NCBI GenBank assembly: GCA_000004985.1
Contig: GG738892.1
Source of the DNA: Naegleria gruberi
Lineage: Eukaryota
DNA length: 64,000 bases
Reading direction: 5' to 3' (one strand)
Made by a program: the position numbers and the translations under genes. Positions 7,692 to 53,130 of this stretch are shown piece by piece (position 1 is the first letter of the stretch; each line of letters opens with the position of its first letter). The notes beneath the pieces are model-generated. The model saw nothing but the letters and a program-made list of their open reading frames with translations. It had not been told where the DNA came from and did no database searches.

Positions 7692-7764
7692 CGCCCACCG
7701 TGGGGGTCGAACCCACGACCACAAGGTTAAGAGCCTTGCGCTCTACCGACTGAGCTAGACGGGC
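7692..7764 (-). tRNA. tRNA-Lys (anticodon CUU)
   Basis: Reverse complement folds as a cloverleaf: acceptor GCCCGTC/GGTGGGC (two G-U pairs), D-arm GCTCAGTCGGTAGAGC, anticodon stem CAAGG/CCTTG with loop CTCTTAA, T-arm GTGGGTTCGACCCCAC, discriminator G; 73 nt, no intron, CCA not encoded. Confidence 0.9.
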
Positions 7765-15306: not shown

Positions 15307-18300
15307 ATGGCTACAAGCTCTGCTCATCTCAACCAAGAGAAGTATTGCACCCAACTCATCAACTTTGAGACCAAGCCAAGTATTACCAAGAAACAACTCA
15401 AGGAAACTTTGGAAGCCAGTCCTCAAAATGTTACCGATGATGAAAAGATAGAAGCCATGAAGACTCTCTTGATGATGCAATTGAACGGAGAAGATTTCTC
15501 CCACTTGCTCATGACCATCATTCAATATGTTTTGCCAAATCAAAACAAGATGATGAAGAAGTTGGCCTACTATTATTTGGAAACTATGAATAGAAGAGAA
15601 CCAGGTAGTGGTAAGATGATTTCGTACCTCTTGATGTGCTGGTATGTTTGTTGTTAGTGATTATTGTTGTTTTAACAAGATTTTCTTCTCCTTGTTACTA
15701 TGATTATTGCTAATTTATTATCCTAATAATATTATTATCCTTGTTGTATAATCTTCTTCACAACACATCTCATATTGATACTTTTATTGTATACAATTAA
15801 TAGCTCCCACATTAGAAACGATCTCCTTCATCCAAACGAATATGTCAGAGGTTTTGCTCTTCGTTTCTTGTCTCGTGTTCGTGAACCAGAAATGTTAGAA
15901 CCTCTCATCACTCCAATCCTTCAAAACTTGGAGCACAGAACATCCTACGTCCGTAGATGTGCAGTTACAACCATCTTTTCTATTTACAGCAATTCTGATG
16001 AAACTAATGGTGAAAGTCTTATTCCTGATGCTCCAGAGTTGATGGAAGAATTCTTAAAGACTGAAACTGAAATCTCTGCTATGAGACATGCTTTCATCAT
16101 GCTCTTCCACTGCGATCAAGAAAGAGCTGTAAGATACTTGAGAGACATTATGAATACTGTCAGTCAACAAGGAGACATTTTCCAATTGGCTATTTTGAAT
16201 CTCTTGAAGCAAATGTGTAAACAATACCCAAGTGAAAAGGCTATTTATCTCAGAGTTATTAGTAGCTTGTTGGAATCCAAGTCAAATTCTGTTGTTTATC
16301 AATGCTGTTGTACATTAGTTTCCCTTTCTTCCTCACCAATTTCTATCAAGTATGCTGCCACAAACTTTATCAAGCTTTTGCAAAATCACTCTGATAGCAA
16401 TGTCAAGTTGATTTGTCTCGAAAGATTGACTGAATTGAAGACCAAGTTTGGTGTTGATGTTATGCAACAAGAACAAATTGTTCTCGACTTGCTTCGTACT
16501 CTTTCTTCATCAACTTCTGTCAATTTGGATAATGACATTAGAAGAAAGATTTTAGAACTCGCTATGGAATTGATTTCTCCATACACTGTTGAGGCTGTTG
16601 TTAATGCTTTGAGACGTGAATTGCAAAAGTCCAGATCTGAAACTGTCGAATATGAAAAGCAATCTGAACAAGAATATCGTAGACATGTTATGCGTACCAT
16701 TCACATTTGTGTCAGAAAGTTCCCAGACCAAACCAACGCCTCTGTTCTTACTCTCATTGGTTCTGATCAATATTTGAGTGATGCTTGTGGTGTTGAATGT
16801 GCCATGCTTGTTCGTGAAGTTATTGAAATTTCTTCCAATGAATTCCGTGCTAAGGTTATTGAAAAGTTGTGTGAACATTTTGCTACTATTAACAATGCCA
16901 GAACCTTCCGTATTGTTTTATGGATTTTGGGTGATTATTGCGATAGTGCTGAACAAATTCAACAAACCTTCCAAACTGTTAAGGTTGAATTGACTGAATT
17001 AATTCAAAATGTTGATGAATTGGCTATTGACAAGCCAGAAGAAAATGATGATACCATCAGCGATGCTGGTAGTTTGAGATCTTCGAAGACTACTAGATCT
17101 ACTGCTACCACTTCTGCCATTGGTAAGGACGGTACCTATGTTACTCAATTTGCTGATACTCTCACCAGCACTGAAGCCAACAACAATGCAGTTGCTTCTA
17201 CCTCTTTGAAGGGATTGATTGAGGAAAGAAACTTTTACTTGGTTTCTGTTGTTGCCAACACTCTCACCAAGTTGGCTCTCAAGTTCAAGCAAATTAACAC
17301 TAACAAGAAGGAAGTTAACAAGATGATTGCTGAGGTTATGAATATTTTGGCTGTTCTTATTCGTATTGGTTTGAGCTCATCTGGTGCCTCATCCAAGAAT
17401 ACTGAAGCTGCTAAGGGCGTTGCTGAATTGGCTCACAAAGGAATCAAGATGGACAAGGACACCCTTGAAAGAATCAATTTGTGCTTGAAAATTTTGGCTT
17501 CCAAGTCTGATGATGAACTCTCATTGCTTGATATTAACGACAATCGTGGTGCTTTCACTCGTATTCTTGAAGAAGAAAAGACTAGAGAAGCTGCTGAACG
17601 TGAAGGGCTCAAATCCAAGAAGGAATTGCAACAAATTCAATGTGACTCCCTCATTCATGTACCTCAATTGAAGGGAAGATCTATTGATGCTATTGACTTT
17701 GAAGATGATCCAGCTGATATTTCTAGAGCCACCTCTAACTTGTCTGCCTCTATGGCTTCCGATCACGAAAAGCTCATGACCAGATTGAGCCGTGTTACTC
17801 AACTTACTGGTTTCTCTGATCCAGTTTATGCTGAGGCTCAAGTTGTTACTCACCAATTTGATATCATGTTGGACATTTTGGTTGTTAACACCACTAACCA
17901 AACCTTCCAAAACTTGACACTTGAAATGAGTACTGTTGGTGATTTGAAGCTCTGTGAACGTCCACAAACTTACACTCTCGCTCCAGGTGCAAGACAACAC
18001 ATTACAGCCAACATTAAGGTTTCTTCCACTGAAAATGGTATCATCTTTGGTAATATTGTTTATGACACTCCAAAGGGTGAATCTTTCTGTATTATTCTTA
18101 ATGATATCCATATCAACATTATGGATTATATCTTCCCAGCCATCTGTAATGATATTCAATTCCGTGCTATGTGGTTCGAATTTGAATGGGAAAATAAGAT
18201 TACTATCAAATCTTTCACTACCGATGTTTCCCTTAGAGATTATCTTACACTGATCAAGGATGTTACTAAGACTAACTGTCTCACACCTGAAAGTGCTCTT

Positions 18301-18513
18301 GATGGTGATTGTGAGTTCTTGTCTGCCAATCTCTATGCTAAGAGCAGCTTTGGTGAAGATGCTTTGGCTAACGTTTCTTTAGAAAAGTTACCAGAAGGCA
18401 ATATTGAAGGTGTTGTCAGAATTCGTAGTAAGACTCAAGGAATTGCGTTGTCATTAGGTAATATTATTGCTGATCAAACTAAGATGTTTGACGCAAAGAA
18501 GTTGAAGAAATAA
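15307..18513 (+). CDS. SEC26: coatomer (COPI) subunit beta; join(15307..15641, 15804..18513), 162-nt intron 15642..15803 (GTATGT..AATAG)
   Basis: Exon 1 matches the COPB N-terminus (..LMMQLNGEDFSHLLMTIIQYVLP.. vs human ..[23 protein letters not shown]..). Exon 2 matches from ..RNDLLHPNEYVRGFALRFL.. through KVTQLTGFSDPVYAEA..IVYDTPKG to ..NLYAKSSFGEDALANVS. Phase-2 splice reconstructs ..LLMC-C-SHIRNDLLHPNEY. Confidence 0.9.
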
Positions 18514-32291: not shown

Positions 32292-32519
32292 ATGGCACTC
32301 GATGACGAAACCAAACATGTCCTGAAAACTGTCGGAATTTCAGTCGGAGTTAGTCTCCTCGTTGTCGGCTTGTATCATCACATTGTGATGGGTCCAATCA
32401 TGGACGATGTCGACAATGCACGACAATACATTGCAAAGATTAAAGCACCTCTGGCTCCACTGGTGGAAAAGGCAAAGGCTATTGAACTTCCGAATTGGTT
32501 GAAGAAATCGGATCAATAA
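32292..32519 (+). CDS. small (75 aa) single-TM protein, function unknown
   Basis: ATG-initiated ORF, TM helix TVGISVGVSLLVVGLYHHIV followed by an amphipathic tail; Lys-rich. Confidence 0.3.
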   Translation: MALDDETKHVLKTVGISVGVSLLVVGLYHHIVMGPIMDDVDNARQYIAKIKAPLAPLVEKAKAIELPNWLKKSDQ

Positions 32520-32683
32520 TTGGTAATCTTTTTAGTCATCTATTTATCTACTAGTATTTATTGTCATCATCATGTTGGAAATTTCATTCCTGAGATGATG
32601 ATTGAATTTTTGTATTTATTTTGGAAAAATTGTAAATTTAATGATGAAATTGTAAATAAAATTGGAATTGTTTGGAATTGGAA

Positions 32684-35600
32684 TCAAGTTACTTCTTGGA
32701 CGAGTTGTTGGGCAGTTAGGCGAGCTTGAGGAAGGAATTTGAGAAGACGAGTCATGATATTGAGGAGTTTGTTTAACAATGCTTGATTGTGGGTATTGCT
32801 GTAGTGATCTGTGATTGCTTTGGTCATTTCTTGGAAGCTGAATAGGTAATAATTCGAATAATTTATCAGACCATTAATTAGAAATATTGAAAATGAAACA
32901 TACCATTGTTCTTCAGAGTGAATGAGTTTGGAACAAATTGAAGTAGAAGTATCCAAAGTTAATAATTGATACAATGTCACTCCAAGTGAATACATGTCAG
33001 TGGCAAATCCATAAGGTTGATTCAATAGTAATTCTGGTGAAATGTAGCAAAGAGAACCAGCATAGGTATTTTTGGTAGTGTGTGCATTCTCTTTGGCAAT
33101 ACCAAAATCTCCCAAAACAACCTCAATCAAATTCGAGTCAATATCCCTTCTTCTGATAAAGATGTTTTGAGGTTTAATGTCTCGGTGCATGACTTGTTGG
33201 GAATGCACATAGTTAAGAGCTTGGGTGGTTTGAGAAATGATTTTCCAAATAATTGGCAGTGGAATAGTTGTGGCTGATTTGATGGATTCACTAATGATGG
33301 ACATGACATCTCCCTTATACAGTTCCATGACAATGCAAAACATGGAAGAATGCTCGGTATCGACTTGGAAAGTGTCATAAATCTTTACCACATTCTGGTG
33401 ATCCAATTGCTTGACAAGATTGGCTTCATTTTCAGCATCTTGTGTTGGTTTCTGAATTGAATTTTTACCTGTAGCGATGGTTTTGATTGCCACATTTGGT
33501 TCCTCTGGTGTATTCAACACTTGGCATTCAAAAATGATACCAAATCCTCCCTCTCCAATAATTCGAATAATTTTGTATCGATCATCAAGAGTCATTCCCA
33601 AATATTGTTCATATCTTCCATTGCCTGCTCTTTGTGGAAGAATTGAATCGACAGTATTCTTGACTCTCTTCAATTTAATCAGGTTGAGTTCATCATCCAA
33701 TAATTGTAAATCCTTCATGTCCACAACATCCACAAATTCCTCAAAATCGGGATCATAGTATTGCAATTCGTAACTACCTCGAATTCCACATCTGAGCTTG
33801 GTTTTTTTCACAAAATCTTGAACACTCTCAGAATAATTGACAACCATTTTGAATCTCTTACGATACAGATTCAACATGTTATCTATATATTCCACTTCAA
33901 ACTTGTAACAGAGATAGGTTTCGGATTTGTTAAGGAGCTTTCGTGCCCAAATAATCATGTCTGAATTTTCAGTTGTTTCTGCAACAGAGGCCAAATCCAT
34001 TCCATTCTTTTTAACATCCACATCAGCTCCCTTCTCAACTAGGATGAAAGCCAATTCTTGTTGATTCGTCTCTACAGCAAAAGTGAGAGGAGTTCCATTA
34101 TTGATCAATTGGCTGAGACCTGTTTTTCCATTACTGTTCGATTTGGCAGGAGCTTGCTCAGCTTCATTTCCATGATTCAATCGAGCATTTAATAACTTTG
34201 GAAACATTTCAATGAGTGTTACAACGCTTTTGGTTGATCTCTTTCTGAGTGCATATAGAATAAGTGAAGGATTCGAATAGTGAGATTCTTGATATCTAAT
34301 ATCACTAATGGTTCTTCTGGTGGCAAGCTCTGGTTCTTTTTGAACAAGGTATTTCAAAGCACTTGTCATGCCATAATCAATTGCTATAAAGCAAGCCTTT
34401 GATAGAACCTCCACATTGAAATTCTTGTCATCCGTAATCATTGCATTGATGAATAGTTCAACACCTGGATACTTAGAGTTGACAATACAATAATCAATTG
34501 GTCTCAGTCCTCTAAAGCTCTCAAAGCAAAGCTCCTTATTTTTCCTAGCAATGATTTCGACTACAGGCCAATACTTGTTATCGATCGCGTAGAGGAGTAG
34601 ATTCATGTCAACTGGTAATTTCTCATTACTTTTTTGAATATTGTCAATCCGTGTCAAGTGGCAATAATCTATCATTTCTTGATTCTTTGTTCTGAGACTT
34701 TCAGCAGCAATGTCTTTGCCTTTTCTGAGGGCATTGACATTAGCTCCTTTGGAAATTAATTCTTTAAGCTCTTCAAATTGGTTGAGTTGAATGGCTACAA
34801 ACATAGCCTCGTCCAATGACATTCCACCACTCTTATCATAGACAGTAAGGTAATATCTATAATAATTTCCACATTTAACAAGATATTTGATGATTTGATT
34901 TTCATATTCCACAAGCTTTGACTTGTCAACCTTGTTGGTCTTGTTTAAAAGATCATTGACCTTTCCAGTAAATTTGTTCAATCCATCCGTTGATGTTTTT
35001 TCTTTCTGGAATATCTTTTCCACCTCTAGTAAATTTTCCTTATATCTTAGAATAGTATCATTGATATTCTTCCACAATCTGCAATATTCAAACATTTTGC
35101 TACAATAAGTTTCATTGATATTGTAAAAGTATGAAAGAACCATACAAATATTAACATTAGGATATTTCAACGAAACAGTTTTGAGCATATTTCTTGTAAC
35201 AGCTATTGGATGACTTCCAAGATCTGGAATGTTCGAAACATTTGGAAGAGTCTCCTTCGAAAGGCAAATTAACACAATATGAGAAGCACAAATCTTTTTC
35301 AGGATATCTCTTTCCAACTTGTAGGTAGAAAGCTTTGAAACCTCATAGTGAAGTGCTCCAATTAATTTGTAATAGCTGTAGAAATACTTGATGAGAGCAA
35401 ATTGCTTTTCTTCTTGATATAAATAGGTCAATTGATTGATGAGAGCATTCGTATTGTCGAATATTGAACTCATTGCTTCAAATCCAATACCTTTGAGCCG
35501 ATATTTCAAATCAGCAAGTTGATACATATTTTGGGAATTATGCAAACAATCTCTCAATGTTAAAATATTCTGTCTATGCTTGTGAATTAAACACTTGACT

Positions 35601-38600
35601 TTCATGTGAACAAGAGCAGGGAAGCCAACAAATGAGGGTGAAATTGAGTAAATCTCCTTTTGCCAAGTGATTGAATGGGATTGAACAAAAAATTGTTTCG
35701 AAACCAAACTCAGAATGAATAAACTTGTTGGTGTGGTAAAGAGACAAATTCTGCCAATGACCTTATCAGGAAGCCACTTATTAAAAGTTGGGAATCTCCG
35801 TTTGATACTTTCTGAAAGTGCCATATACACATTTCCCATACTCAACAAGTGTTTCAATGGTAAATTGTGCATTATAAATGTAGAATAGAGTGGAACTGCT
35901 TTTTCAATAATTCCAAGAACTATATTATCCGTTTGTTGACCAGGATCTTCTTCGTCATCCTCCTCACGAAACAGCTTCAATTTTTGCTCCAGCTCAACTC
36001 GTAATGACATCTTATTGGACTTTGGTTTTGAGAGTGGAATTGGTGATTTGGATTTTGGAGTACTAGCTTTCGAAAACAAAGTAGGGGGAGGTGGTGGAGG
36101 GATTGCCTTTTCTAGTGGAGTAGGTTTGATAAAGAGTTTGACATCTATTGGTTGGTTAATATTTGGAGGTGGAAGAGGTATTTCCACTTGTTTTGTTGTG
36201 GTGTTCTCTTCCTTCTTTATGGTAGAGGTAGCAGTGGAAATTAGCTTAAATGAACTGTCTGTGTTAGTCTTTTCGATAAAGATACTCGTTGTCAGGAACA
36301 AGTAGTACAATTCATTTCTATCGATGAGTTCATTATCCATCGTCTTGTTTCTGTATTGAATGAGGTAGGGCTGATTGGCCGAGTAGACCTCCATCTTGCC
36401 AGCAATAATTCTCTTTGCTGTTGGTTCCTTGCTCTTAACTGGTCTAATCAGTAGTGGATTGAATATTGGAACTGGAGGAATAATACCACGTTTGTAAACA
36501 ATTACCTTATTATCGAATGGATTGTCTAATTTTTCAACAGATCGTAATGGCAAATTCTTGACATGTTCTGGCAATTCTTTTGGAATCAATTCCAGCAAAT
36601 ATTTGACTTCCTCCTGACGATGCTTTGTAAGCATTGACTCTTTCATAACTGTTATAATAGTATAGAGGAAGGTACTGAATTGATTATCCTTGAATCCAAA
36701 TCTCTTCTTGATATCCATGAAGAATGTTCCATGATAACGTTCCATAATTGAATCAATCCAAGAAGATGCTCTGTTCCAATCAAATTGTTTAGACAAGTTT
36801 AAAACTGTCTTTTTAAGAATTTCGAATAATCTGTTATGATTCTTGGAGAAAACATAGGCCAAATAATCAACATATCTCACATTGTGAAAGTATAAACCAG
36901 AACCAGCCTCTGACTTTTTGATGAACATTTTCAATTCCATCAAGTCATTAGTAATGGAGGTGGAATTTTTCAATACATAGGTCCCAGTAACCTTTGCATC
37001 AATGCCATGATTGAAAATGATCATGGTTTGGTCAATAATTGCCATTAGAGTTTTCATTGGCAACATGAATGGCTCGAAGAGTGAGGGAACAACCTCGAAA
37101 AGTCTGTCAAATTTTGGATCAGAAACAATTTTTGATTCATAGTCATGAGTTTCGTCCAATATTTGTTTCAGATATTTTGCAGATGATGATTTTAACAGGG
37201 TGTCTGCAATTTTAAATTCCAAAGGTTCTAAATCTGTACCTCTAATATCGTGACTAATAATTTCAAGAGATTTTTCCGAGAGCATATCAATAAATTTCAA
37301 AACCTTGACGCTTTTGATCGCATCCAAATCTGGATATCTCAAAAATTCAAAATCTGTACTATTCTGTTGTAAAAATTCTTTCAAATTCACATCCTTGACA
37401 AAGTTCTGCTTGTTTAAAACCTTGCTCAACCTCATGTAGAGATGATTCTTTTCATAGACGCTGGTAATATTCTCGTGAAGTCGTTCGACATAGTTCAGGA
37501 ATGTTTCCAACTCATTACTCTCATCCTCAATTAGTTTTTTAAATGTTTTCCCTCTGTGTGAATGCAGTACTGATGGAAACATGTCACTGGAGAGAAAGGT
37601 CACATTATGAACAAAGGTCTGAACGTACGGATCATTGGTGAGGAAATTTCTCAAATAATCAGGTGAAATATATTTGGAGTTTAAATAGTGATTATTATTT
37701 GTCTCTCTTTTGTTATTTCCATTAGAAAAATTAGAGCTACCCGAAGGAGGAGTATTAGTTGGTGAAGGTGGAGGAGTAGATTTGGGAGATTCTTCTAAGT
37801 TATCAAAGACTGAGGCAAACGAACCTGCTAATGATAAATTTCCAGATGAATTTTCCCTCTTCATTTCCGTTTCAGATGAGAAGAAATCATGAGCATGAAT
37901 CCACAATTGAAATAATTCCTTTTGATTATTTTCCAATAAATGATTCAACACTTGTAATATTTGATAACTGAAAAAGTAAGATTCTTGTCCAGAGTTTGGA
38001 AAGGATTTGTCATTATATTCATAAATATCCAATCCTGTTGTATCCTTTTGTTTTTTCAAATAGAATTTGAATCCTTGTAAATTTCTCTGAATAAAGTTTA
38101 GAATAAACTCATGGAAATAATTACTTACAATGATGGTCTTTTTAATTTCCATAGTTGGATATCGAATTAATTTCTTTTGGAGAATTGAATTTGGAGAAGC
38201 CATATTCGAATCAAAATTAGGTGTCTGATCCGAAGTGAAAGGATTTACCTTGATAATCTTATTTGAAAAGTTCTCCACCTGTTGTCTATTTGGTTTACTA
38301 TTTTGACTTGCAGATAAATATTTAAATCTTCCATTAGTTTCTGATTGACTAGAATTGGGCACTGTTTGTTTCTGTTGAAAATGTTGAGATTGAACATTCT
38401 TCGCCTGATAAACTGTGGAACGAATAAAATCAGCCAATTTACTCTTTCCACTCGACTCTTTACTCCAACCAAAATCTTTAGGTTTCGCACTAAATGAACT
38501 AATCTCACAAATTAATGGAATTTGTAAGACATTAGAAGATTGAGACATGTTTTCCAAAAAGATTCCCTTCCTCACAGTGGGCTGATCCCTCATTAGTGAA

Positions 38601-38956
38601 ATTAAATCAGTCAATATAATTCCTCCAAACAAGTAGGCATCCTCAGTATTGAAATATTGTGAACGTTCGGGAATGACTTGAATTTGTATGGAAATCACAT
38701 CACGGGATGGATTTTCTATATCGAGTGTGGTAGAAATAGAGGTTGTATTGGTTTTTAATTGATCGGCAGAAAAACTTTGTTTATGTTGTAGGTGTCGTGA
38801 GGTGTAGATGGAAATTTCCACTTGAGTGGGAGAATAGAGTTGAGTATTGATGGTGTTGAGAAGGTTGGAATCAAATTCCTTGATGCTCGTAGAGATGTTG
38901 ATGAACCCGAGCTGTAGTTCCAGGCTTGTATTTGCTGCCTGTGTTTGTGTGAGCAT
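32684..38956 (-). CDS. giant (~2090 aa) multidomain protein: large uncharacterised N-terminal/central region, ankyrin repeats, C-terminal Ser/Thr protein kinase domain; join(38956..32904, 32837..32684), 66-nt in-frame intron 32838..32903 (GTATGT..TTCAG)
   Basis: Kinase subdomains present: GEGGFGIIFEC, AIKTI, HRDIKPQNIFI, DFGIAK, GSLCYISPE. Ankyrin-like repeats sit upstream (..GANVNALRKGKD.., ..TPLTFAVETNQQELAFILVEKGADVDV..). Pro-rich linkers (PPPPPTLF, PPPSPTNTPP). The intron is AT-rich and stop-free so the ORF track reads through it; removing it restores subdomain XI (..SEEQ-C-FQEMTKAI..). Confidence 0.8.
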   Translation of the reverse strand: MLTQTQAANTSLELQLGFINISTSIKEFDSNLLNTINTQLYSPTQVEISIYTSRHLQHKQSFSADQLKTNTTSISTTLDIENPSRDVISIQIQVIPERSQYFNTEDAYLFGGIILTDLISLMRDQPTVRKGIFLENMSQSSNVLQIPLICEISSFSAKPKDFGWSKESSGKSKLADFIRSTVYQAKNVQSQHFQQKQTVPNSSQSETNGRFKYLSASQNSKPNRQQVENFSNKIIKVNPFTSDQTPNFDSNMASPNSILQKKLIRYPTMEIKKTIIVSNYFHEFILNFIQRNLQGFKFYLKKQKDTTGLDIYEYNDKSFPNSGQESYFFSYQILQVLNHLLENNQKELFQLWIHAHDFFSSETEMKRENSSGNLSLAGSFASVFDNLEESPKSTPPPSPTNTPPSGSSNFSNGNNKRETNNNHYLNSKYISPDYLRNFLTNDPYVQTFVHNVTFLSSDMFPSVLHSHRGKTFKKLIEDESNELETFLNYVERLHENITSVYEKNHLYMRLSKVLNKQNFVKDVNLKEFLQQNSTDFEFLRYPDLDAIKSVKVLKFIDMLSEKSLEIISHDIRGTDLEPLEFKIADTLLKSSSAKYLKQILDETHDYESKIVSDPKFDRLFEVVPSLFEPFMLPMKTLMAIIDQTMIIFNHGIDAKVTGTYVLKNSTSITNDLMELKMFIKKSEAGSGLYFHNVRYVDYLAYVFSKNHNRLFEILKKTVLNLSKQFDWNRASSWIDSIMERYHGTFFMDIKKRFGFKDNQFSTFLYTIITVMKESMLTKHRQEEVKYLLELIPKELPEHVKNLPLRSVEKLDNPFDNKVIVYKRGIIPPVPIFNPLLIRPVKSKEPTAKRIIAGKMEVYSANQPYLIQYRNKTMDNELIDRNELYYLFLTTSIFIEKTNTDSSFKLISTATSTIKKEENTTTKQVEIPLPPPNINQPIDVKLFIKPTPLEKAIPPPPPPTLFSKASTPKSKSPIPLSKPKSNKMSLRVELEQKLKLFREEDDEEDPGQQTDNIVLGIIEKAVPLYSTFIMHNLPLKHLLSMGNVYMALSESIKRRFPTFNKWLPDKVIGRICLFTTPTSLFILSLVSKQFFVQSHSITWQKEIYSISPSFVGFPALVHMKVKCLIHKHRQNILTLRDCLHNSQNMYQLADLKYRLKGIGFEAMSSIFDNTNALINQLTYLYQEEKQFALIKYFYSYYKLIGALHYEVSKLSTYKLERDILKKICASHIVLICLSKETLPNVSNIPDLGSHPIAVTRNMLKTVSLKYPNVNICMVLSYFYNINETYCSKMFEYCRLWKNINDTILRYKENLLEVEKIFQKEKTSTDGLNKFTGKVNDLLNKTNKVDKSKLVEYENQIIKYLVKCGNYYRYYLTVYDKSGGMSLDEAMFVAIQLNQFEELKELISKGANVNALRKGKDIAAESLRTKNQEMIDYCHLTRIDNIQKSNEKLPVDMNLLLYAIDNKYWPVVEIIARKNKELCFESFRGLRPIDYCIVNSKYPGVELFINAMITDDKNFNVEVLSKACFIAIDYGMTSALKYLVQKEPELATRRTISDIRYQESHYSNPSLILYALRKRSTKSVVTLIEMFPKLLNARLNHGNEAEQAPAKSNSNGKTGLSQLINNGTPLTFAVETNQQELAFILVEKGADVDVKKNGMDLASVAETTENSDMIIWARKLLNKSETYLCYKFEVEYIDNMLNLYRKRFKMVVNYSESVQDFVKKTKLRCGIRGSYELQYYDPDFEEFVDVVDMKDLQLLDDELNLIKLKRVKNTVDSILPQRAGNGRYEQYLGMTLDDRYKIIRIIGEGGFGIIFECQVLNTPEEPNVAIKTIATGKNSIQKPTQDAENEANLVKQLDHQNVVKIYDTFQVDTEHSSMFCIVMELYKGDVMSIISESIKSATTIPLPIIWKIISQTTQALNYVHSQQVMHRDIKPQNIFIRRRDIDSNLIEVVLGDFGIAKENAHTTKNTYAGSLCYISPELLLNQPYGFATDMYSLGVTLYQLLTLDTSTSICSKLIHSEEQWYVSFSIFLINGLINYSNYYLFSFQEMTKAITDHYSNTHNQALLNKLLNIMTRLLKFLPQARLTAQQLVQEVT

Positions 38957-39097: not shown

Positions 39098-40045
39098 TTA
39101 ATTTTCAATAATTAAAACACCAATAACATGACTTCCTCCTTTTTCTTGTTCATTAGAAAATGGTTCAAAAGTAACCTTAACTTGAGACATTACTTGTGAA
39201 TAATCTCCAACACCTTCCAATTGCAAAGTATCATCTCTATTCAATATGTGAATAGAACTCTTATCATCATGATTGGATGATTTTGGAATGTTAACTTTGA
39301 CCAAGGCATCCAAATCATCGGGTACATATAAAAACAAGTGCCACTTCCTTTGATTGTTACTAGTATCTATTTGTTGTTCTTCTTCATCTTGTTCTGTTGT
39401 AGTTGATGAAGTTGTTGTTACTGGTAATAAATCCAATAATTGCAACAAATTAATTTCTTCTGATGAATCAAAGTCATGCACAGAACGACAAACGACCTTC
39501 TCACACTTGGTTCTTTCATCCTTCGTCATGACATTATAGTCAATAATTAAATGTTCCTGGTCTCCTTCATCGATTGTTGAAGGAATTAATTCACACTCTG
39601 TTTTGGCAGAACCAGAAAAGTAATAGGGAACCATCAGTGGAAGATAATCCCTTTGTATTAATTCCTTCCTTGATGAATCTTGTTCTTCATGTTGTTGAAT
39701 AATGTACATTTGTGTTGGATGTGTAGTCTTTTGTTGTGGATGTTGCGATAGATTACATTGAGTATAAATTAAAACACGAGAATAGCCTACAAAGGATGAG
39801 AAGGGGACCTTTTGAGAGTTTGTTGTTGTTTGTTGCTCTTCAAGAGGTTGTTGTTGATGAAATTGTGTTTTCATCTGAGCACTCGATAAACGGAATGTAA
39901 AATCATCATTAACAGATGTACACGTTGATGGAGAAATGATAAATTGTCTGGTAGTTCCTTGACCATTCTTCCATGGCATGGTTTGATAGTCAGAACTTGC
40001 GAGCTTGGAAGAAGATAAAATAGAATAGTGGATTGGGGGAGACAT
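39098..40045 (-). CDS. hypothetical Gln/Thr-rich protein
   Basis: 315-aa ORF with ATG start; low-complexity acidic and Thr-rich segments; no recognisable domain. Confidence 0.35.
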   Translation of the reverse strand: MSPPIHYSILSSSKLASSDYQTMPWKNGQGTTRQFIISPSTCTSVNDDFTFRLSSAQMKTQFHQQQPLEEQQTTTNSQKVPFSSFVGYSRVLIYTQCNLSQHPQQKTTHPTQMYIIQQHEEQDSSRKELIQRDYLPLMVPYYFSGSAKTECELIPSTIDEGDQEHLIIDYNVMTKDERTKCEKVVCRSVHDFDSSEEINLLQLLDLLPVTTTSSTTTEQDEEEQQIDTSNNQRKWHLFLYVPDDLDALVKVNIPKSSNHDDKSSIHILNRDDTLQLEGVGDYSQVMSQVKVTFEPFSNEQEKGGSHVIGVLIIEN

Positions 40046-40728: not shown

Positions 40729-42555
40729 TTAAACAAAAATTTGTTGAAGGGCAGGTAATTTTCTAAGCATATTTCTAACTTGGTTACCATAGGGGTTTGG
40801 CCAGTATGCACAGAGCCATGTTAAATTTTTCAAAGCAAGTATGGATTTTGCTCCTTCATCAGTCATTCCAATGCCATTAATGTGGAGTTTTGTGAGACGA
40901 GTTAGTCGACTAATAGCCTTAACTCCTTCATCTCCAATTTCATAATCGCTGTAAATGCGCAGTTCAGTTAATTGGCTCATCTGACCAATATATTTAGCTC
41001 CTACAGTTCGAATATTATTAGCGCCAATCGAAAGAGCAGTTAAATTGGGTAATTGACTGATAAATCGAGCCCCTTCTGAACAAATATTATTATAGTCAAT
41101 CTTGAGAATTAGTAAATGTTTCATCTCGCTTATCTTTTCGGCACCTGTTGTTCCAATTTCGTTGTTTTCAATATCAAGTTCAGTTAAATGCTTTAACTCT
41201 GTAATTGATTGAATTCCAGTTTTGTTTATGGAATTTCGTGGGACAATTAATGATGTCAAATGTGTCATTTCACAGATTGATTTGAATTCATTTTGAGTAA
41301 AATTTTTCGAAATGTCAAGTTTTTTCAAATGTTTCATTCTTTCAAGTAAATTGGGATCCAAATAATAATTATAGTGTAGGTACAGTGATTTCAATTGATC
41401 TAATTTGGTGATGGAAACCAATCCATTCGTGGTAATTTTGTTATATCCTAAATTAAGGTATGTTAAATTTGTAATTTCACTACTTTCTACCATTACATTC
41501 TCAATTTGATTATATTGCATATCCAGAAAGGTTAATTGTTTCATTTTGATAATATACTCCGCACCAACATCACCAATTCTATTTCCATTAATGCAAAGTG
41601 CAGTTAATTTTTCAAGTCTACTAATATATAAGGCACCTTTAGCATGAATATGATTATTTCCAATGGAAAGGCATGTCAATTGTTTCATTTCAGCAACATT
41701 TTGTGCTCCTTTAGATCCGAGATTATTTCTATTAATATTGAGCGATTTTAAATATTGTAATTTTTCACTAATCGGCTTGCAAGAGGTAATACCACAACCA
41801 CTAACATTGAGATATATCAAATGATTTAAATTTTCTGCAATTTCCTCAATTCCCAAATCTCCAATTCTATTCTTTTTAATATTAAGATGTGTTAAATTTT
41901 TCATTTTACAAATTGATTCTACACTTTCAATTCTATTATTTCTAATATTCAACAATGTTAAACCTTTCAAATCACTCAACAATTCCAACCCTTCATCTTT
42001 TATATGATTATCCCCTAAATTTAATAATTCCAAATTTTTAAATTGAGATAGTATTTTAACTTGTTCATTTCCAATATCACTTGAAGCAATGTCCAATCTT
42101 TTCAAATGTTTCATTTTACAAATTGTATTCTCTACACTTTCGAATAAAGTTTCATTACCATGATCAACATGTCTTGATTGTTTGAAAAATTGCATAAATC
42201 GTAATCCAACAAGTTTTAAATTGAAAATACCCTCCATATGATGATGTTTCCAACTCGAATAAATCCAAACTCTATTAAAATAACCTTTTCTCATGACCAG
42301 GGAAAGTTTCGCCTTCTTGTTTGTAATCACCCGATCCCACTGTTGCGAAATTAATGTACAAACTGTTTTTACAAATTGATAATCAAGATATTGAACAATT
42401 TCTGAACAAATATCATCCGAAAACAATTCATCTAAACTTTGATAATATTAAAATGATTTTTATAAATTTTGCATGTAAATAGAGATATGTAAATATTACT
42501 TACCACTCGATAATCTAAATTTCAATGATTCCGATAATGATACTTGTTCTGGCAT
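40729..42555 (-). CDS. F-box-like / RNI-type leucine-rich-repeat protein; join(42555..42504, 42431..40729), 72-nt intron 42432..42503 (GTAAGT..TTTAG)
   Basis: About 17 tandem ~24-28-aa LRRs of ribonuclease-inhibitor type (L..L.I..N.IG..GA..I..). Short 5' exon (MPEQVSLSESLKFRLSS) splices in phase 1 to ..DELFSDDICSEIVQYLDYQFVKTVCTLISQQWDRVI (F-box-like), the same N-terminal motif as the paralogue at 49310. Confidence 0.75.
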
Positions 42556-44544: not shown

Positions 44545-44616
44545 CTCCCATGCCGGGAATTGAACCCGGACCTCCTGGGTGAAAGCCAGGTATCCTAGCC
44601 ATTGGACTACACGGGA
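44545..44616 (-). tRNA. tRNA-Glu (anticodon UUC)
   Basis: Reverse complement TCCCGTGTAGTCCAATGGCTAGGATACCTGGCTTTCACCCAGGAGGTCCGGGTTCAATTCCCGGCATGGGA(G) folds as cloverleaf: acceptor TCCCGTG/CATGGGA, anticodon stem CCTGG/CCAGG with loop CTTTCAC; 72 nt; T-rich flank downstream on the coding strand. Confidence 0.9.
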
Positions 44617-47683: not shown

Positions 47684-47764
47684 GGTGTGTTGACCGAGTG
47701 GTTATGGTGCTGGCTTCAGGTGCCAGTGGGTAAAACCGCGTGGGTTCAAATCCCACACACATCA
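47684..47764 (+). tRNA. tRNA-Leu (anticodon CAG), type II with long variable arm
   Basis: GGTGTGT-TG-ACC-GAGTGGTTAT-GGT-G-CTGGC-TTCAGGT-GCCAG-[13-nt variable arm]-GTGGG-TTCAAAT-CCCAC-ACACATC-A. Discriminator A73 and U33 indicate Leu rather than Ser identity. An oligo-T tract follows. Confidence 0.85.
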
Positions 47765-50582: not shown

Positions 50583-52229
50583 ATGAAAAGACAATATGAT
50601 ATGATTAATACTTGTTCTTCTGATCAAGATGAAGATGATGATTGTACAGAAACTTGTTCTTCCGAAGATGAACAATATGAACTTGCTTTAAAATATTTTA
50701 ATGGGACTAATGTTGAAACAAATTATTCTAAAGCTTTCGACTTGTTTTTGAAGAGTGCGGAACAGGGAAAGACAGAATCACAACATCAAATTGGCTATTT
50801 TTATCATTGTGGATTGGTGGTGGAGAAGGATTTATCTAAAGCAATGGAATGGTATCTGAAAGCTGCCGAAAAGGGATTTTCAGAATCACAATTTTCAATC
50901 GGAATTTTGTTTTATAAAGGAGTTGAAGTGGAGTATTCGAAAGCTATGGAATGGTTTTTGAAAGCAGCTGAAAATGGTCTTTCGAAAGCTCAGTGTAATC
51001 TTGCTGCTTTATATGAAAATGGATGGGGAGTTGAACAAGATTATTCGAAAGCTATGGAATGGTATTTAAAATCTGCTGAACAGGAAAATTCAATAGCTCA
51101 ATGTAATATTGGAAATATATTTGCAAATGGAAAGGGAGTTGACCAAGATTATTCTAAAGCATTCGAATGGTATCTGAAAGCTGCTAAAAATGGTGATTTA
51201 ACTGCTCAATCATTTGTTGCATCATCATTTGCAACTGGAAGAGGGGTCAAAAAAGATTATTCTAAAGCATTCGAATGGTATTCAAAAGCAGCTGAAAATG
51301 ATTATTCTCATTCAGTCTACAGTATTGTAAATGGAAAAGGAACAGACAGTGATGCAAAATTCAATCTAGCTTATTTATACGAAACTGGATCAGGTGTTCA
51401 AAAGAACATCCTGAAAGCATTCGAATGGTATATGAAAGCAGCTCAAGATGGTCATCTAAATGCACAATTTTCCATTGCAGGATTTTATAGAGATGGATTG
51501 GTAGTTCAACAAAATTTTTCAAAGGCAGTAGTATGGTATTTGATAGCTGCTGAAAATGGTCATATGGACGCACAGTTCAATGCTGGTTATGCTTTTGAAA
51601 ATGGTTTAGGAGTTCCACAAGATTATTCGAAAGCTATGGAATTATATTCTAAAGCTGCTGAACAGGGGAGTGCACGTGCTGAATGTAATATTGGAAATAT
51701 GTATTTGTATGGGAGAGGTGTTGAAATAGATTATTCGAAAGCTGAGGAACATTTATTGAAGGCCTCTGAAAGAGGTGATGCATTATCACAAGTTAATGTT
51801 GCATATTATTACATGAATGGAGTATTCGATAGAGATTACACCAAAGCATTCAAATACTTTCTTGAGGCTGCTAAAAATGGTGAGCTAACCGCCCAGAATA
51901 ATGTTGCAAAATTATTCGAATTGGGCCTAGGAACTGAGAAAAATTTGAAACAAGCTCTATTTTGGAATTCAAAAAAATTGAATGATAGTTGCAGTTTTCA
52001 ATTTATTGAGGATCCGTATGACCAATTTGCTTTAAAAACTTTCAGACCAGTAATAGACAGCGAGATGAGTTTAATTACAGATTCGAATGAGATGGTGATT
52101 ATTCGATTTGAAACTAGAGATTTTACAATCTTGAAAAACAAGGTGATCACAAGCAAATACTTGACAACAATGATGAATTCTAATTGGATTGGTTTCAATT
52201 CGAAAGGAGAATGGTCAACTTGTACTTGA
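50583..52229 (+). CDS. Sel1-repeat (SLR) protein, ~12 tandem Sel1 repeats
   Basis: Repeated 36-aa units of the form ..DYSKAMEWYLKAAEQG...AQ.NLG..YENG.GV.QD; the C-terminus leaves the repeats and begins a BTB-like segment that continues in another frame (see 52189..52650). Confidence 0.8.
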   Translation: MKRQYDMINTCSSDQDEDDDCTETCSSEDEQYELALKYFNGTNVETNYSKAFDLFLKSAEQGKTESQHQIGYFYHCGLVVEKDLSKAMEWYLKAAEKGFSESQFSIGILFYKGVEVEYSKAMEWFLKAAENGLSKAQCNLAALYENGWGVEQDYSKAMEWYLKSAEQENSIAQCNIGNIFANGKGVDQDYSKAFEWYLKAAKNGDLTAQSFVASSFATGRGVKKDYSKAFEWYSKAAENDYSHSVYSIVNGKGTDSDAKFNLAYLYETGSGVQKNILKAFEWYMKAAQDGHLNAQFSIAGFYRDGLVVQQNFSKAVVWYLIAAENGHMDAQFNAGYAFENGLGVPQDYSKAMELYSKAAEQGSARAECNIGNMYLYGRGVEIDYSKAEEHLLKASERGDALSQVNVAYYYMNGVFDRDYTKAFKYFLEAAKNGELTAQNNVAKLFELGLGTEKNLKQALFWNSKKLNDSCSFQFIEDPYDQFALKTFRPVIDSEMSLITDSNEMVIIRFETRDFTILKNKVITSKYLTTMMNSNWIGFNSKGEWSTCT

Positions 52230-53049: not shown

Positions 53050-53130
53050 TGATGTGTGTGGGATTTGAACCCACGCGGTTTTACCCACTGGCACCTGAAG
53101 CCAGCACCATAACCACTCGGTCAACACACC
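53050..53130 (-). tRNA. tRNA-Leu (anticodon CAG), second copy in inverted orientation
   Basis: Exact reverse complement of the 47684..47764 gene over all 81 nt; ~45 nt of 5' flank and the oligo-T 3' flank are also similar between copies. Confidence 0.85.

Follow-up and report, generated by a model that had tools for sequence, protein, structure and literature searches.

A single nuclear gene of Naegleria gruberi, read from the minus strand of a 64,000-nucleotide window of contig GG738892.1, most likely encodes a cytosolic multidomain Ser/Thr kinase of about 2068 amino acids, in which a C-terminal kinase domain is joined to a targeting and regulatory scaffold. The scaffold role is proposed for the whole of the non-kinase remainder. 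Six to eight ankyrin repeats would serve in protein binding; the other parts would be a module of ~80 residues directly preceding the kinase, a probable F-box-like motif, proline-rich linkers, and an N-terminal part of ~1000 residues, found in Naegleria only, that would combine a beta-rich head with a conserved helical core. The gene is real, catalogued and ordinary but for its first ~1,300 residues, and the protein is a lineage-specific multidomain kinase. Its features are as follows (residues are numbered along the entire open reading frame, ORF):

32684..38956, minus strand: whole ORF, one gene encoding a multidomain Ser/Thr kinase; residues 137-2090 make up the GenBank model.
38549..38956, minus strand: N-terminal extension, residues 1-136, probably coding, absent from the GenBank model.
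38462..38956, minus strand: beta-rich N-terminal region, residues 1-165, ending at a conserved DFGW(S/N)KES.
36557..37669, minus strand: conserved alpha-helical core, residues 430-800, from the orthologue alignment and AF2; no Pfam or PDB match.
36002..36184, minus strand: proline- and lysine-rich linker, residues 925-985, with PPP and PPPPPP runs.
35657..35779, minus strand: F-box-like motif, residues 1060-1100 (core LPDKVIGRICLFTTPTSLFILSLVSKQFF), borderline in Pfam and hhalign.
34820..35656, minus strand: helical stretch, residues 1101-1379, leading from the F-box-like motif to the ankyrin repeats, from AF2; no Pfam family assigned.
33917..34819, minus strand: ankyrin-repeat region, residues 1380-1680, with ~6-8 degenerate repeats, from Pfam, AF2 and Foldseek.
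33662..33910, minus strand: conserved module of ~80 residues directly before the kinase, residues 1683-1765, from the orthologue alignment.
32693..33577, minus strand: protein kinase catalytic domain, residues 1794-2088 (Pfam Pkinase), with all catalytic residues present.
32838..32903, minus strand: predicted in-frame intron of 66 nt in the kinase C-lobe, GTATGT...CTATTCAG, ending in CAG.

The ORF begins with ATG and runs without interruption for 2090 codons plus a stop. The first-pass annotation had described it as a giant ankyrin-repeat Ser/Thr kinase of ~2090 residues; the length proved exact, and both the ankyrin repeats and a complete Pkinase domain score above their Pfam cut-offs (see below). 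At 34% G+C, stops are calculated to make up ~7% of random codons, so that an open frame of 2090 codons is impossible by chance. Neither strand carries another ORF of at least 100 amino acids that overlaps it; codon usage is of the coding type in each segment and continuous along the frame. Self-BLAST disclosed no internal duplications in the protein, and there are no tandem DNA repeats within the gene. GenBank already holds the gene as XP_002673273.1 (EFC40529.1; UniProt D2VRV2), an automatically annotated "Serine/Threonine kinase" of 1954 amino acids to which residues 137-2090 of the ORF are 100% identical. No functional study of XP_002673273.1 was found in the literature, and a literature search with three accessions returned no paper. 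Among transcript-derived records and contigs, no exact match to the 1954-, 2090- or 2068-residue product is on record.

The orthologue, C9374_000027 of N. lovaniensis (XP_044552580.1; P0003, 2049 amino acids, automatic annotation), is collinear over its full length and 45% identical. Conserved blocks comprise residues 481-760, residues 1681-1760 and the kinase; to judge by this alignment, the gene is under selection along its length. Residues 1794-2088 match Pfam Pkinase (PF00069) with E=1.7e-48 and 165.8 bits (cut-off 31.7) over model positions 1-260 of 263. A complete eukaryotic kinase had been claimed for the C-terminus, and its motifs lie where they had been placed: GEGGFG at 1801, VAIK at 1822, HRDIKPQN at 1924, DFG at 1950, SPE at 1973 and DMYSLG at 1987. 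The motifs GEGGFG, VAIK, HRD, DFG, SPE and DMYSLG are invariant in the orthologue. From its intact residues the domain is predicted to be catalytically active and, since it is of the 'RD' type, would probably be switched on by phosphorylation of the activation loop (ENAHTTKNTYAGSLCYISPE).

Ankyrin repeats had been placed upstream of the kinase, and an Ank_2 match of 34.6 bits (cut-off 27.3) indeed covers residues 1524-1649, with weaker Ank matches from residue 1384 onward. The Pfam Ank family itself scores 21.8 bits against a cut-off of 21.1, and the N. lovaniensis orthologue also has an ankyrin match. In the AF2 model, residues 1449-1679 form paired helices with pLDDT values of 50-83, the sole part of the model in that range. 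The best Foldseek matches are ankyrin-repeat proteins (4o60, AnkB 5y4f; E ~3e-4), with a high RMSD (7-10 Å) that is due to the poor remainder of the AF2 model. Between the repeats and the kinase, residues 1683-1765 are 72-82% identical to the orthologue, which equals the best-conserved parts of the kinase. This module has no Pfam match at E<=10, and a PDB profile search returned chance matches only. A PB1 or ubiquitin-like module, guessed by eye, was rejected: hhalign against seven PB1 domains gave 0.3%, with no Pfam and no PDB match.

In the first ~1380 residues no Pfam family rises above threshold, and the PDB offers no relative by sequence. The earlier view that the first ~1300 residues could not be assigned thus stands, the F-box-like motif discussed below falling under the cut-off. 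The same annotation had suggested a C2-like start. AF2 draws about seven strands at residues 10-152, at pLDDT values of 52 or less, but no Pfam C2 family matches at E<=10, and hhalign against classical C2 domains (Syt1, PKCalpha and cPLA2) gave 0.2%; what remains of the suggestion is a beta-rich pattern in a low-confidence model. Better founded were the proline-rich linkers, with PPP at 395 and 929 and PPPPPP at 953; in the linker at residues 925-985, the orthologue keeps the feature and not the exact sequence. The best-conserved stretch within the N-terminal 1380 residues is residues 481-760, with 60-80% identity to N. lovaniensis, as in YESKIVSDPxFDRxFEVxPSLFEPFMLPMKTLM. AF2 models built from two-sequence alignments reached mean pLDDT values of 30.5 (residues 1-1200) and 39.5 (residues 1000-2090), and the kinase domain itself came out without a confident fold, so that no structural statement on the orphan region is drawn from them. 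Foldseek with the model of residues 1000-2090 returned ankyrin and kinase matches only.

A phmmer search of 1.84 billion representatives with residues 1-1200 retrieved the protein itself and the N. lovaniensis orthologue only. A word-based search and a two-species profile search of 5.8 billion proteins retrieved the protein itself alone. No relatives were found in metagenomes with the pre-kinase module as query, nor in viral contigs with the N-terminal alignment as query; these searches lend no support to an origin from giant viruses or the environment. The N-terminal 1200 residues look like a single-copy sequence restricted to the genus Naegleria. The gene had been regarded as typical of lineage-specific signalling expansions: the lineage-specific element holds for these 1200 residues, but no expansion is visible in them, no paralogue being present at E<=0.001 among the 1.84 billion representatives.

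Borderline signals converge on a short segment in the middle of the protein. Residues 1062-1094 match Pfam F-box (PF00646) with E=6e-4 and 20.0 bits when the segment is searched (cut-off 20.5), and with E=0.02 and 15.2 bits in the whole protein. At the homologous position of N. lovaniensis, Pfam F-box-like (PF12937) gives E=0.0075 and 16.5 bits (cut-off 24.3). In hhalign, comparison with an uncurated alignment of seven F-boxes gave a probability of 79.5% (P=1.5e-5), where eight shuffles and a decoy reached at most 1.7%. The core LPxK..xxICL...PT.L...SLVSKQFF is common to both species. By these three tests, borderline as each is, the segment is a probable F-box-like motif. The kinase might then be linked to SCF: the motif would bind Skp1 and would either place the kinase under ubiquitin-dependent turnover or make it a substrate receptor, whose ankyrin repeats would bind substrates for phosphorylation by the attached kinase. 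The three signals and the conserved core speak for this reading, and Legionella AnkB is an ankyrin effector that contains an F-box (PMC2790608). Against it, the 20.0 bits fall short of the Pfam gathering cut-off, the hhalign reference set is uncurated, and the motif lies mid-protein, ~290 residues from the first ankyrin repeat, where pLDDT is ~30-40. A link to SCF is tentative and less likely than not; it elaborates the scaffolded kinase proposed above, and both can hold.

The affinity of the catalytic domain bears on another reading, namely that the protein is a divergent NEK (NIMA-related) kinase acting in a flagellar, basal-body or cell-cycle programme of the amoeboflagellate. Of the solved structures, NEK7 ranks with the closest (96.3 bits), with 29-32% identity in Foldseek alignments. 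The catalytic loop HRDIKPQNIFI and a Y-I-S-P-E motif resemble NEK signatures. However, apicomplexan CDPK1 scores equally or slightly higher (97.1 bits), followed at a short distance by DCLK1 (87 bits), ULK1 and CaMKII. Combinations of NEK with ankyrin repeats are known in Giardia, but in the opposite order, the kinase coming first and the repeats after it, and the association is stated to be unseen outside Giardia (PMC3218828). Membership in the NEK family seems, on balance, rather unlikely. A TKL-type ankyrin kinase of the ILK/TNNI3K kind was also considered and rejected, Pkinase (165.8 bits) scoring well above PK_Tyr_Ser-Thr (109.8 bits) on the same domain. Among the 60 best PDB matches shown, there is no ILK- or TNNI3K-type kinase, and the only tyrosine-type chain is 7t6f (~84 bits), well below NEK7 and CDPK.

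Two changes are proposed to the GenBank model of N. gruberi, which probably starts 136 codons late and retains the predicted 66-nt intron as coding sequence. The annotated start, Met137, is probably too far 3' because the 136 upstream codons are open, of coding type and aligned with N. lovaniensis. The true start is probably the ATG at 38956, set in A-rich sequence 141 nt after the stop codon of the preceding gene. Within the extension, the codon-usage score is +0.11 in frame versus -0.42 and -0.21 out of frame, and the alignment with the N-terminus of the orthologue pairs, for example, FGGIILTDLISL with FRGIVSNDLNSL.

At the other end of the gene, the predicted intron coincides exactly with a 22-residue gap against P0003, and splicing would create the junction SEEQ-C-FQEM, which aligns with SEEN-C-MQEL of N. 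lovaniensis. The intron has a negative codon score and a G+C content of 23%, where the exon flanking it upstream has ~36%. Removal of these 66 nt would leave a mature protein of 2068 amino acids, given the predicted splicing and start codon. The gene had been called nearly intron-free, with in-frame retained introns suspected; both remarks agree with the single intron predicted at 32838..32903. When all N. gruberi-specific insertions of at least 6 residues relative to N. lovaniensis were screened for GT...AG ends at a matching length, only this one qualified. A decaying pseudogene, or a catalytically dead pseudokinase scaffold, would find some support in the 22-residue non-homologous insertion that the C-lobe keeps in the GenBank model if the intron is not removed. 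However, the catalytic residues are all intact and kept in the orthologue; the insertion, with canonical GT...AG ends, a length that is a multiple of three, the low G+C content and no counterpart in N. lovaniensis, is read as an intron and not as a lesion, and decay or loss of activity is very improbable. A fusion, artefactual or real, of a gene for the N-terminal orphan protein with a separate ankyrin-repeat kinase gene is hardly credible, since 6.27 kb pass without a stop codon, the same collinear architecture occurs in a single N. lovaniensis gene model, coding-type codon usage is unbroken and conservation spans the putative junction regions.

For the multidomain kinase, these results would correct the public gene model by adding 136 N-terminal residues and removing a 22-residue, intron-derived insertion from the C-lobe. 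They also bring out ~1000 residues that are conserved within Naegleria and lack any relative in ~15 billion public proteins. Since the brain-eating pathogen N. fowleri belongs to the same genus, an apparently active kinase limited to Naegleria, and seen here in N. gruberi and N. lovaniensis, could offer a selective target or a marker of the lineage. In practice little is gained, and no long-standing open question is touched. Should the F-box-like motif be functional, the protein would join Dictyostelium MEKKalpha as another kinase with a direct connection to SCF ubiquitin ligases. In the boldest and decidedly improbable version, kinase and SCF adaptor would be united in one polypeptide: the F-box would recruit Skp1/cullin, the ankyrin repeats and N-terminal domains would choose the partners, the kinase would make phosphodegrons or trigger its own destruction, and the N-terminal ~1000 residues would hold at least one undescribed fold.

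Three known systems invite comparison. ILK and TNNI3K, of the TKL group, carry N-terminal ankyrin repeats, a protein-docking module, followed by a C-terminal kinase. The domain order is that of the Naegleria protein, but they are without the ~1380-residue N-terminal extension, and the Naegleria domain is nearest to NEK7 and CDPK among solved structures, not to TKL kinases. The NEK-ankyrin kinases of Giardia have an N-terminal kinase and C-terminal repeats with a TALM signature, and form a massively expanded family (PMC3218828). With the Naegleria protein they share a kinase domain, divergent ankyrin repeats in a variable array and an excavate protist as host; the resemblance to NEK kinases is tentative on the Naegleria side. 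In Naegleria, however, the repeats precede the kinase, and no paralogue exists of the N-terminal 1200 residues, the part searched. Dictyostelium MEKKalpha combines an F-box, WD40 repeats and a kinase, with ubiquitination governing its stability (PMC5666861). Like the Naegleria protein it is a kinase with a repeat-type protein-binding domain, and the putative F-box would extend the likeness; it differs in having WD40 repeats and a MEKK kinase, where the Naegleria protein has ankyrin repeats and an F-box-like motif that is borderline by sequence.

The kinase gene occupies a single open reading frame of 2090 aa (32684..38956, minus strand) whose translation is uninterrupted, and the ORF listing of the window contains no rival ORF of at least 100 aa overlapping it on either strand. 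At the window's G+C content of ~34%, stops should make up ~7% of random codons by our arithmetic, and chance therefore does not account for an open frame of 2090 codons. The first-pass annotation had considered that the ORF might be a fusion of two genes. This idea finds no support: the full-length Naegleria lovaniensis orthologue (P0003, C9374_000027; 2049 aa, 45% overall identity) shows the same collinear architecture within one gene model, and codon bias (codon score) and conservation (N. lovaniensis comparison) are unbroken along the whole ORF. On these sequence criteria the ORF is one gene, not two. The gene is intact and maintained by selection. N. lovaniensis has two orthologue records, P0002 (C9374_013710, on a 56-kb contig) and P0003 (on a 749-kb contig), whose first ~1755 residues are identical. 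Beyond this point, P0002 skips the pre-kinase linker and its kinase domain is mis-modelled and truncated. Probably one record is a haplotig or recent duplicate of the other, and one of the two gene models is faulty.

The public model, XP_002673273.1, appears to be wrong at both ends, starting 136 codons late and translating a 66-nt intron. The segments concerned are:

38549-38956, minus strand: probable N-terminal extension missing from the GenBank model (open frame, codon usage, orthologue)
32838..32903, minus strand: predicted intron of 66 nt within the kinase C-lobe, with GTATGT...CTATTCAG ends

The GenBank protein (1954 aa) begins at Met137 of the ORF and is identical to it from there on. 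The true start is probably the ATG at 38956, since the reading frame stays open for 136 codons upstream of Met137, this ATG has an A-rich context and lies 141 nt downstream of the upstream gene's stop, codon usage across aa 1-136 is of the coding type (score +0.11 in frame vs -0.42 and -0.21 in the other frames), and the alignment with the N. lovaniensis orthologue covers aa 1-136 and runs through Met137. The 66-nt segment has a negative codon score and a G+C content of 23%, vs ~36% in the upstream flanking exon. It coincides exactly with the sole 22-aa gap in the kinase C-lobe relative to the full-length N. lovaniensis protein, and its removal creates a junction, SEEQ-C-FQEM, that aligns with N. 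lovaniensis SEEN-C-MQEL. Because this intron would be removed and no other N. gruberi-specific insertion relative to N. lovaniensis has splice-like ends, the mature protein is most likely 2068 aa long. The collections queried held no transcript-derived record of a 2090-aa or 2068-aa product.

The kinase motifs, including all those quoted in the first-pass annotation, are found in the translated ORF (GEGGFG at 1801, VAIK at 1822, HRDIKPQN at 1924, DFG at 1950, SPE at 1973, DMYSLG at 1987), and Pfam recognizes the protein kinase domain in full (aa 1794-2088; E=1.7e-48; 165.8 bits vs a cut-off of 31.7). The ankyrin repeats it had placed upstream are likewise recovered (Ank_2, aa 1524-1649; 34.6 bits vs a cut-off of 27.3), with weaker Ank matches starting at aa 1384. 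Among solved relatives of the catalytic domain, apicomplexan CDPK1 scores highest (97 bits), closely followed by human NEK7 (96 bits); DCLK1, ULK1, CaMKII and NEK2 come next, all within 15 bits. The sequence HRDIKPQNIFI and the YISPE motif have a NEK-like look; NEK would be one candidate family.

Upstream of the ankyrin repeats lies a long orphan region. A phmmer search with aa 1-1200, covering ~15 billion proteins through 1.84 billion representatives, gave two matches, N. lovaniensis (42% identity) and the query's own N. gruberi entry. A word-indexed database of 5.8 billion proteins yielded only self, by sequence and by two-species profile; the PDB held no relative by sequence or profile, viral contigs did not match the N-terminal alignment, and Pfam returned only noise apart from an F-box signal. 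Judged from these searches, which return N. gruberi and N. lovaniensis only, the orphan region is confined to Naegleria. Its want of a detectable paralogue argues against membership in an expanded family, as initially proposed. Conservation is uneven:

Identity to N. lovaniensis along the protein
aa 1-160: 18-32%
aa 201-240 and 361-400 (low-complexity linkers): about 10%
aa 481-760: 50-80%
aa ~1000-1240 (F-box-like motif included): 28-38%
aa 1380-1680 (ankyrin region): 20-60%
aa 1681-1760: 72-82%
kinase: 42-85%

A low-confidence AF2 secondary-structure prediction suggests ~7 beta strands at aa 10-152 and mostly helices onward to aa 1380. Two AF2 runs, both limited by the two-sequence alignment, gave mean pLDDT values of 30.5 and 39.5; even the kinase domain lacked a confident fold, and therefore no fold was assigned to the orphan region. 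The C2-like start suggested earlier is not borne out, with no Pfam match at E<=10 and an hhalign probability of 0.2% against three classical C2 domains; a C2 domain of a divergent class is conceivable. The pre-kinase module (aa 1683-1765) is as conserved relative to N. lovaniensis as the best kinase parts. The comparisons do not support a PB1 domain here (no Pfam or PDB match; hhalign 0.3%), and a metagenome scan with aa 1678-1771 gave no match.

One further motif was noted by Pfam, orthologue and hhalign comparison:

aa 1062-1094: F-box-like motif, LPDKVIGRICLFTTPTSLFILSLVSKQFF

Pfam scores this segment just under the F-box cut-off (E=6e-4; 20.0 bits vs 20.5; E=0.02 on the whole protein), and the N. 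lovaniensis orthologue independently matches F-box-like at the aligned position (E=0.0075). Against an uncurated reference set of seven F-boxes, hhalign gave 79.5% probability (P=1.5e-5), vs at most 1.7% for eight shuffles and a PB1 decoy. The balance of these comparisons moderately favors an F-box-like fold.

A query with aa 1-1380 retrieved a single, 100% identical protein, 'Serine/Threonine kinase [Naegleria gruberi]' (strain NEG-M; EFC40529.1, XP_002673273.1, UniProt D2VRV2). The gene is thus already catalogued, by automatic annotation only, and the searchable literature does not mention these accessions. It is of an ordinary kind, a large lineage-specific multidomain protist kinase; additions to the public record are confined to the orphan region, a borderline F-box and the corrected gene model.

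The ORFs around the kinase gene include those for coatomer beta, RabGAP-TBC, RGS-like, CwfJ, LRR, Sel1, GAF and mTERF-like proteins; they are ordinary for a eukaryote and fit a compact protist genome with few introns. Among them are a protein with nine Sel1 repeats (50583-52229, plus strand; E=1.8e-107) and an RNI-like LRR protein (40729-42426, minus strand; LRR_6 E=2.8e-46). In the coatomer beta ORF (15775-18513, plus strand), the Pfam Adaptin_N match does not start until model position 82; the N-terminus is probably encoded by an exon further upstream, hence an intron near the 5' end. Directly upstream of the kinase gene, a 315-aa ORF (39098-40045, minus strand) partially matches HutD, best at aa 18-60 (model positions 1 to ~42 of 181); it is a gene split by an intron or else a divergent fusion. 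Close to the 3' end of the kinase gene and convergent with that gene, an ORF of ~70 aa (~32300-32520, plus strand) has one hydrophobic helix in a by-eye reading. The window also holds four tRNA genes, the two Leu-CAG copies lying on opposite strands ~5 kb apart:

7692-7764, minus strand: tRNA-Lys-CTT
44545-44616, minus strand: tRNA-Glu-TTC
47684-47764, plus strand: tRNA-Leu-CAG
53050-53130, minus strand: tRNA-Leu-CAG

As translated, the catalytic domain holds every residue needed for phosphotransfer, and the protein contains an ankyrin-repeat array and conserved non-catalytic blocks. It would be an active RD-type Ser/Thr kinase regulated via the activation loop. The ankyrin repeats, the pre-kinase module and N-terminal domains peculiar to Naegleria presumably determine its specificity and location. 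Its proline-rich linkers, which contain PPP and PPPPPP, may give SH3-, WW- or profilin-type docking sites, and the putative F-box-like motif may couple the kinase to SCF ubiquitin ligases as a possible extra layer. An ankyrin kinase of the ILK or TNNI3K type is ruled out because the Pfam Pkinase model outscores the Tyr/TKL-type model on the catalytic domain; ILK and TNNI3K share the domain order of the N. gruberi kinase but differ in the type of catalytic domain, whereas in the NEK-ankyrin proteins of Giardia the domain order is reversed.
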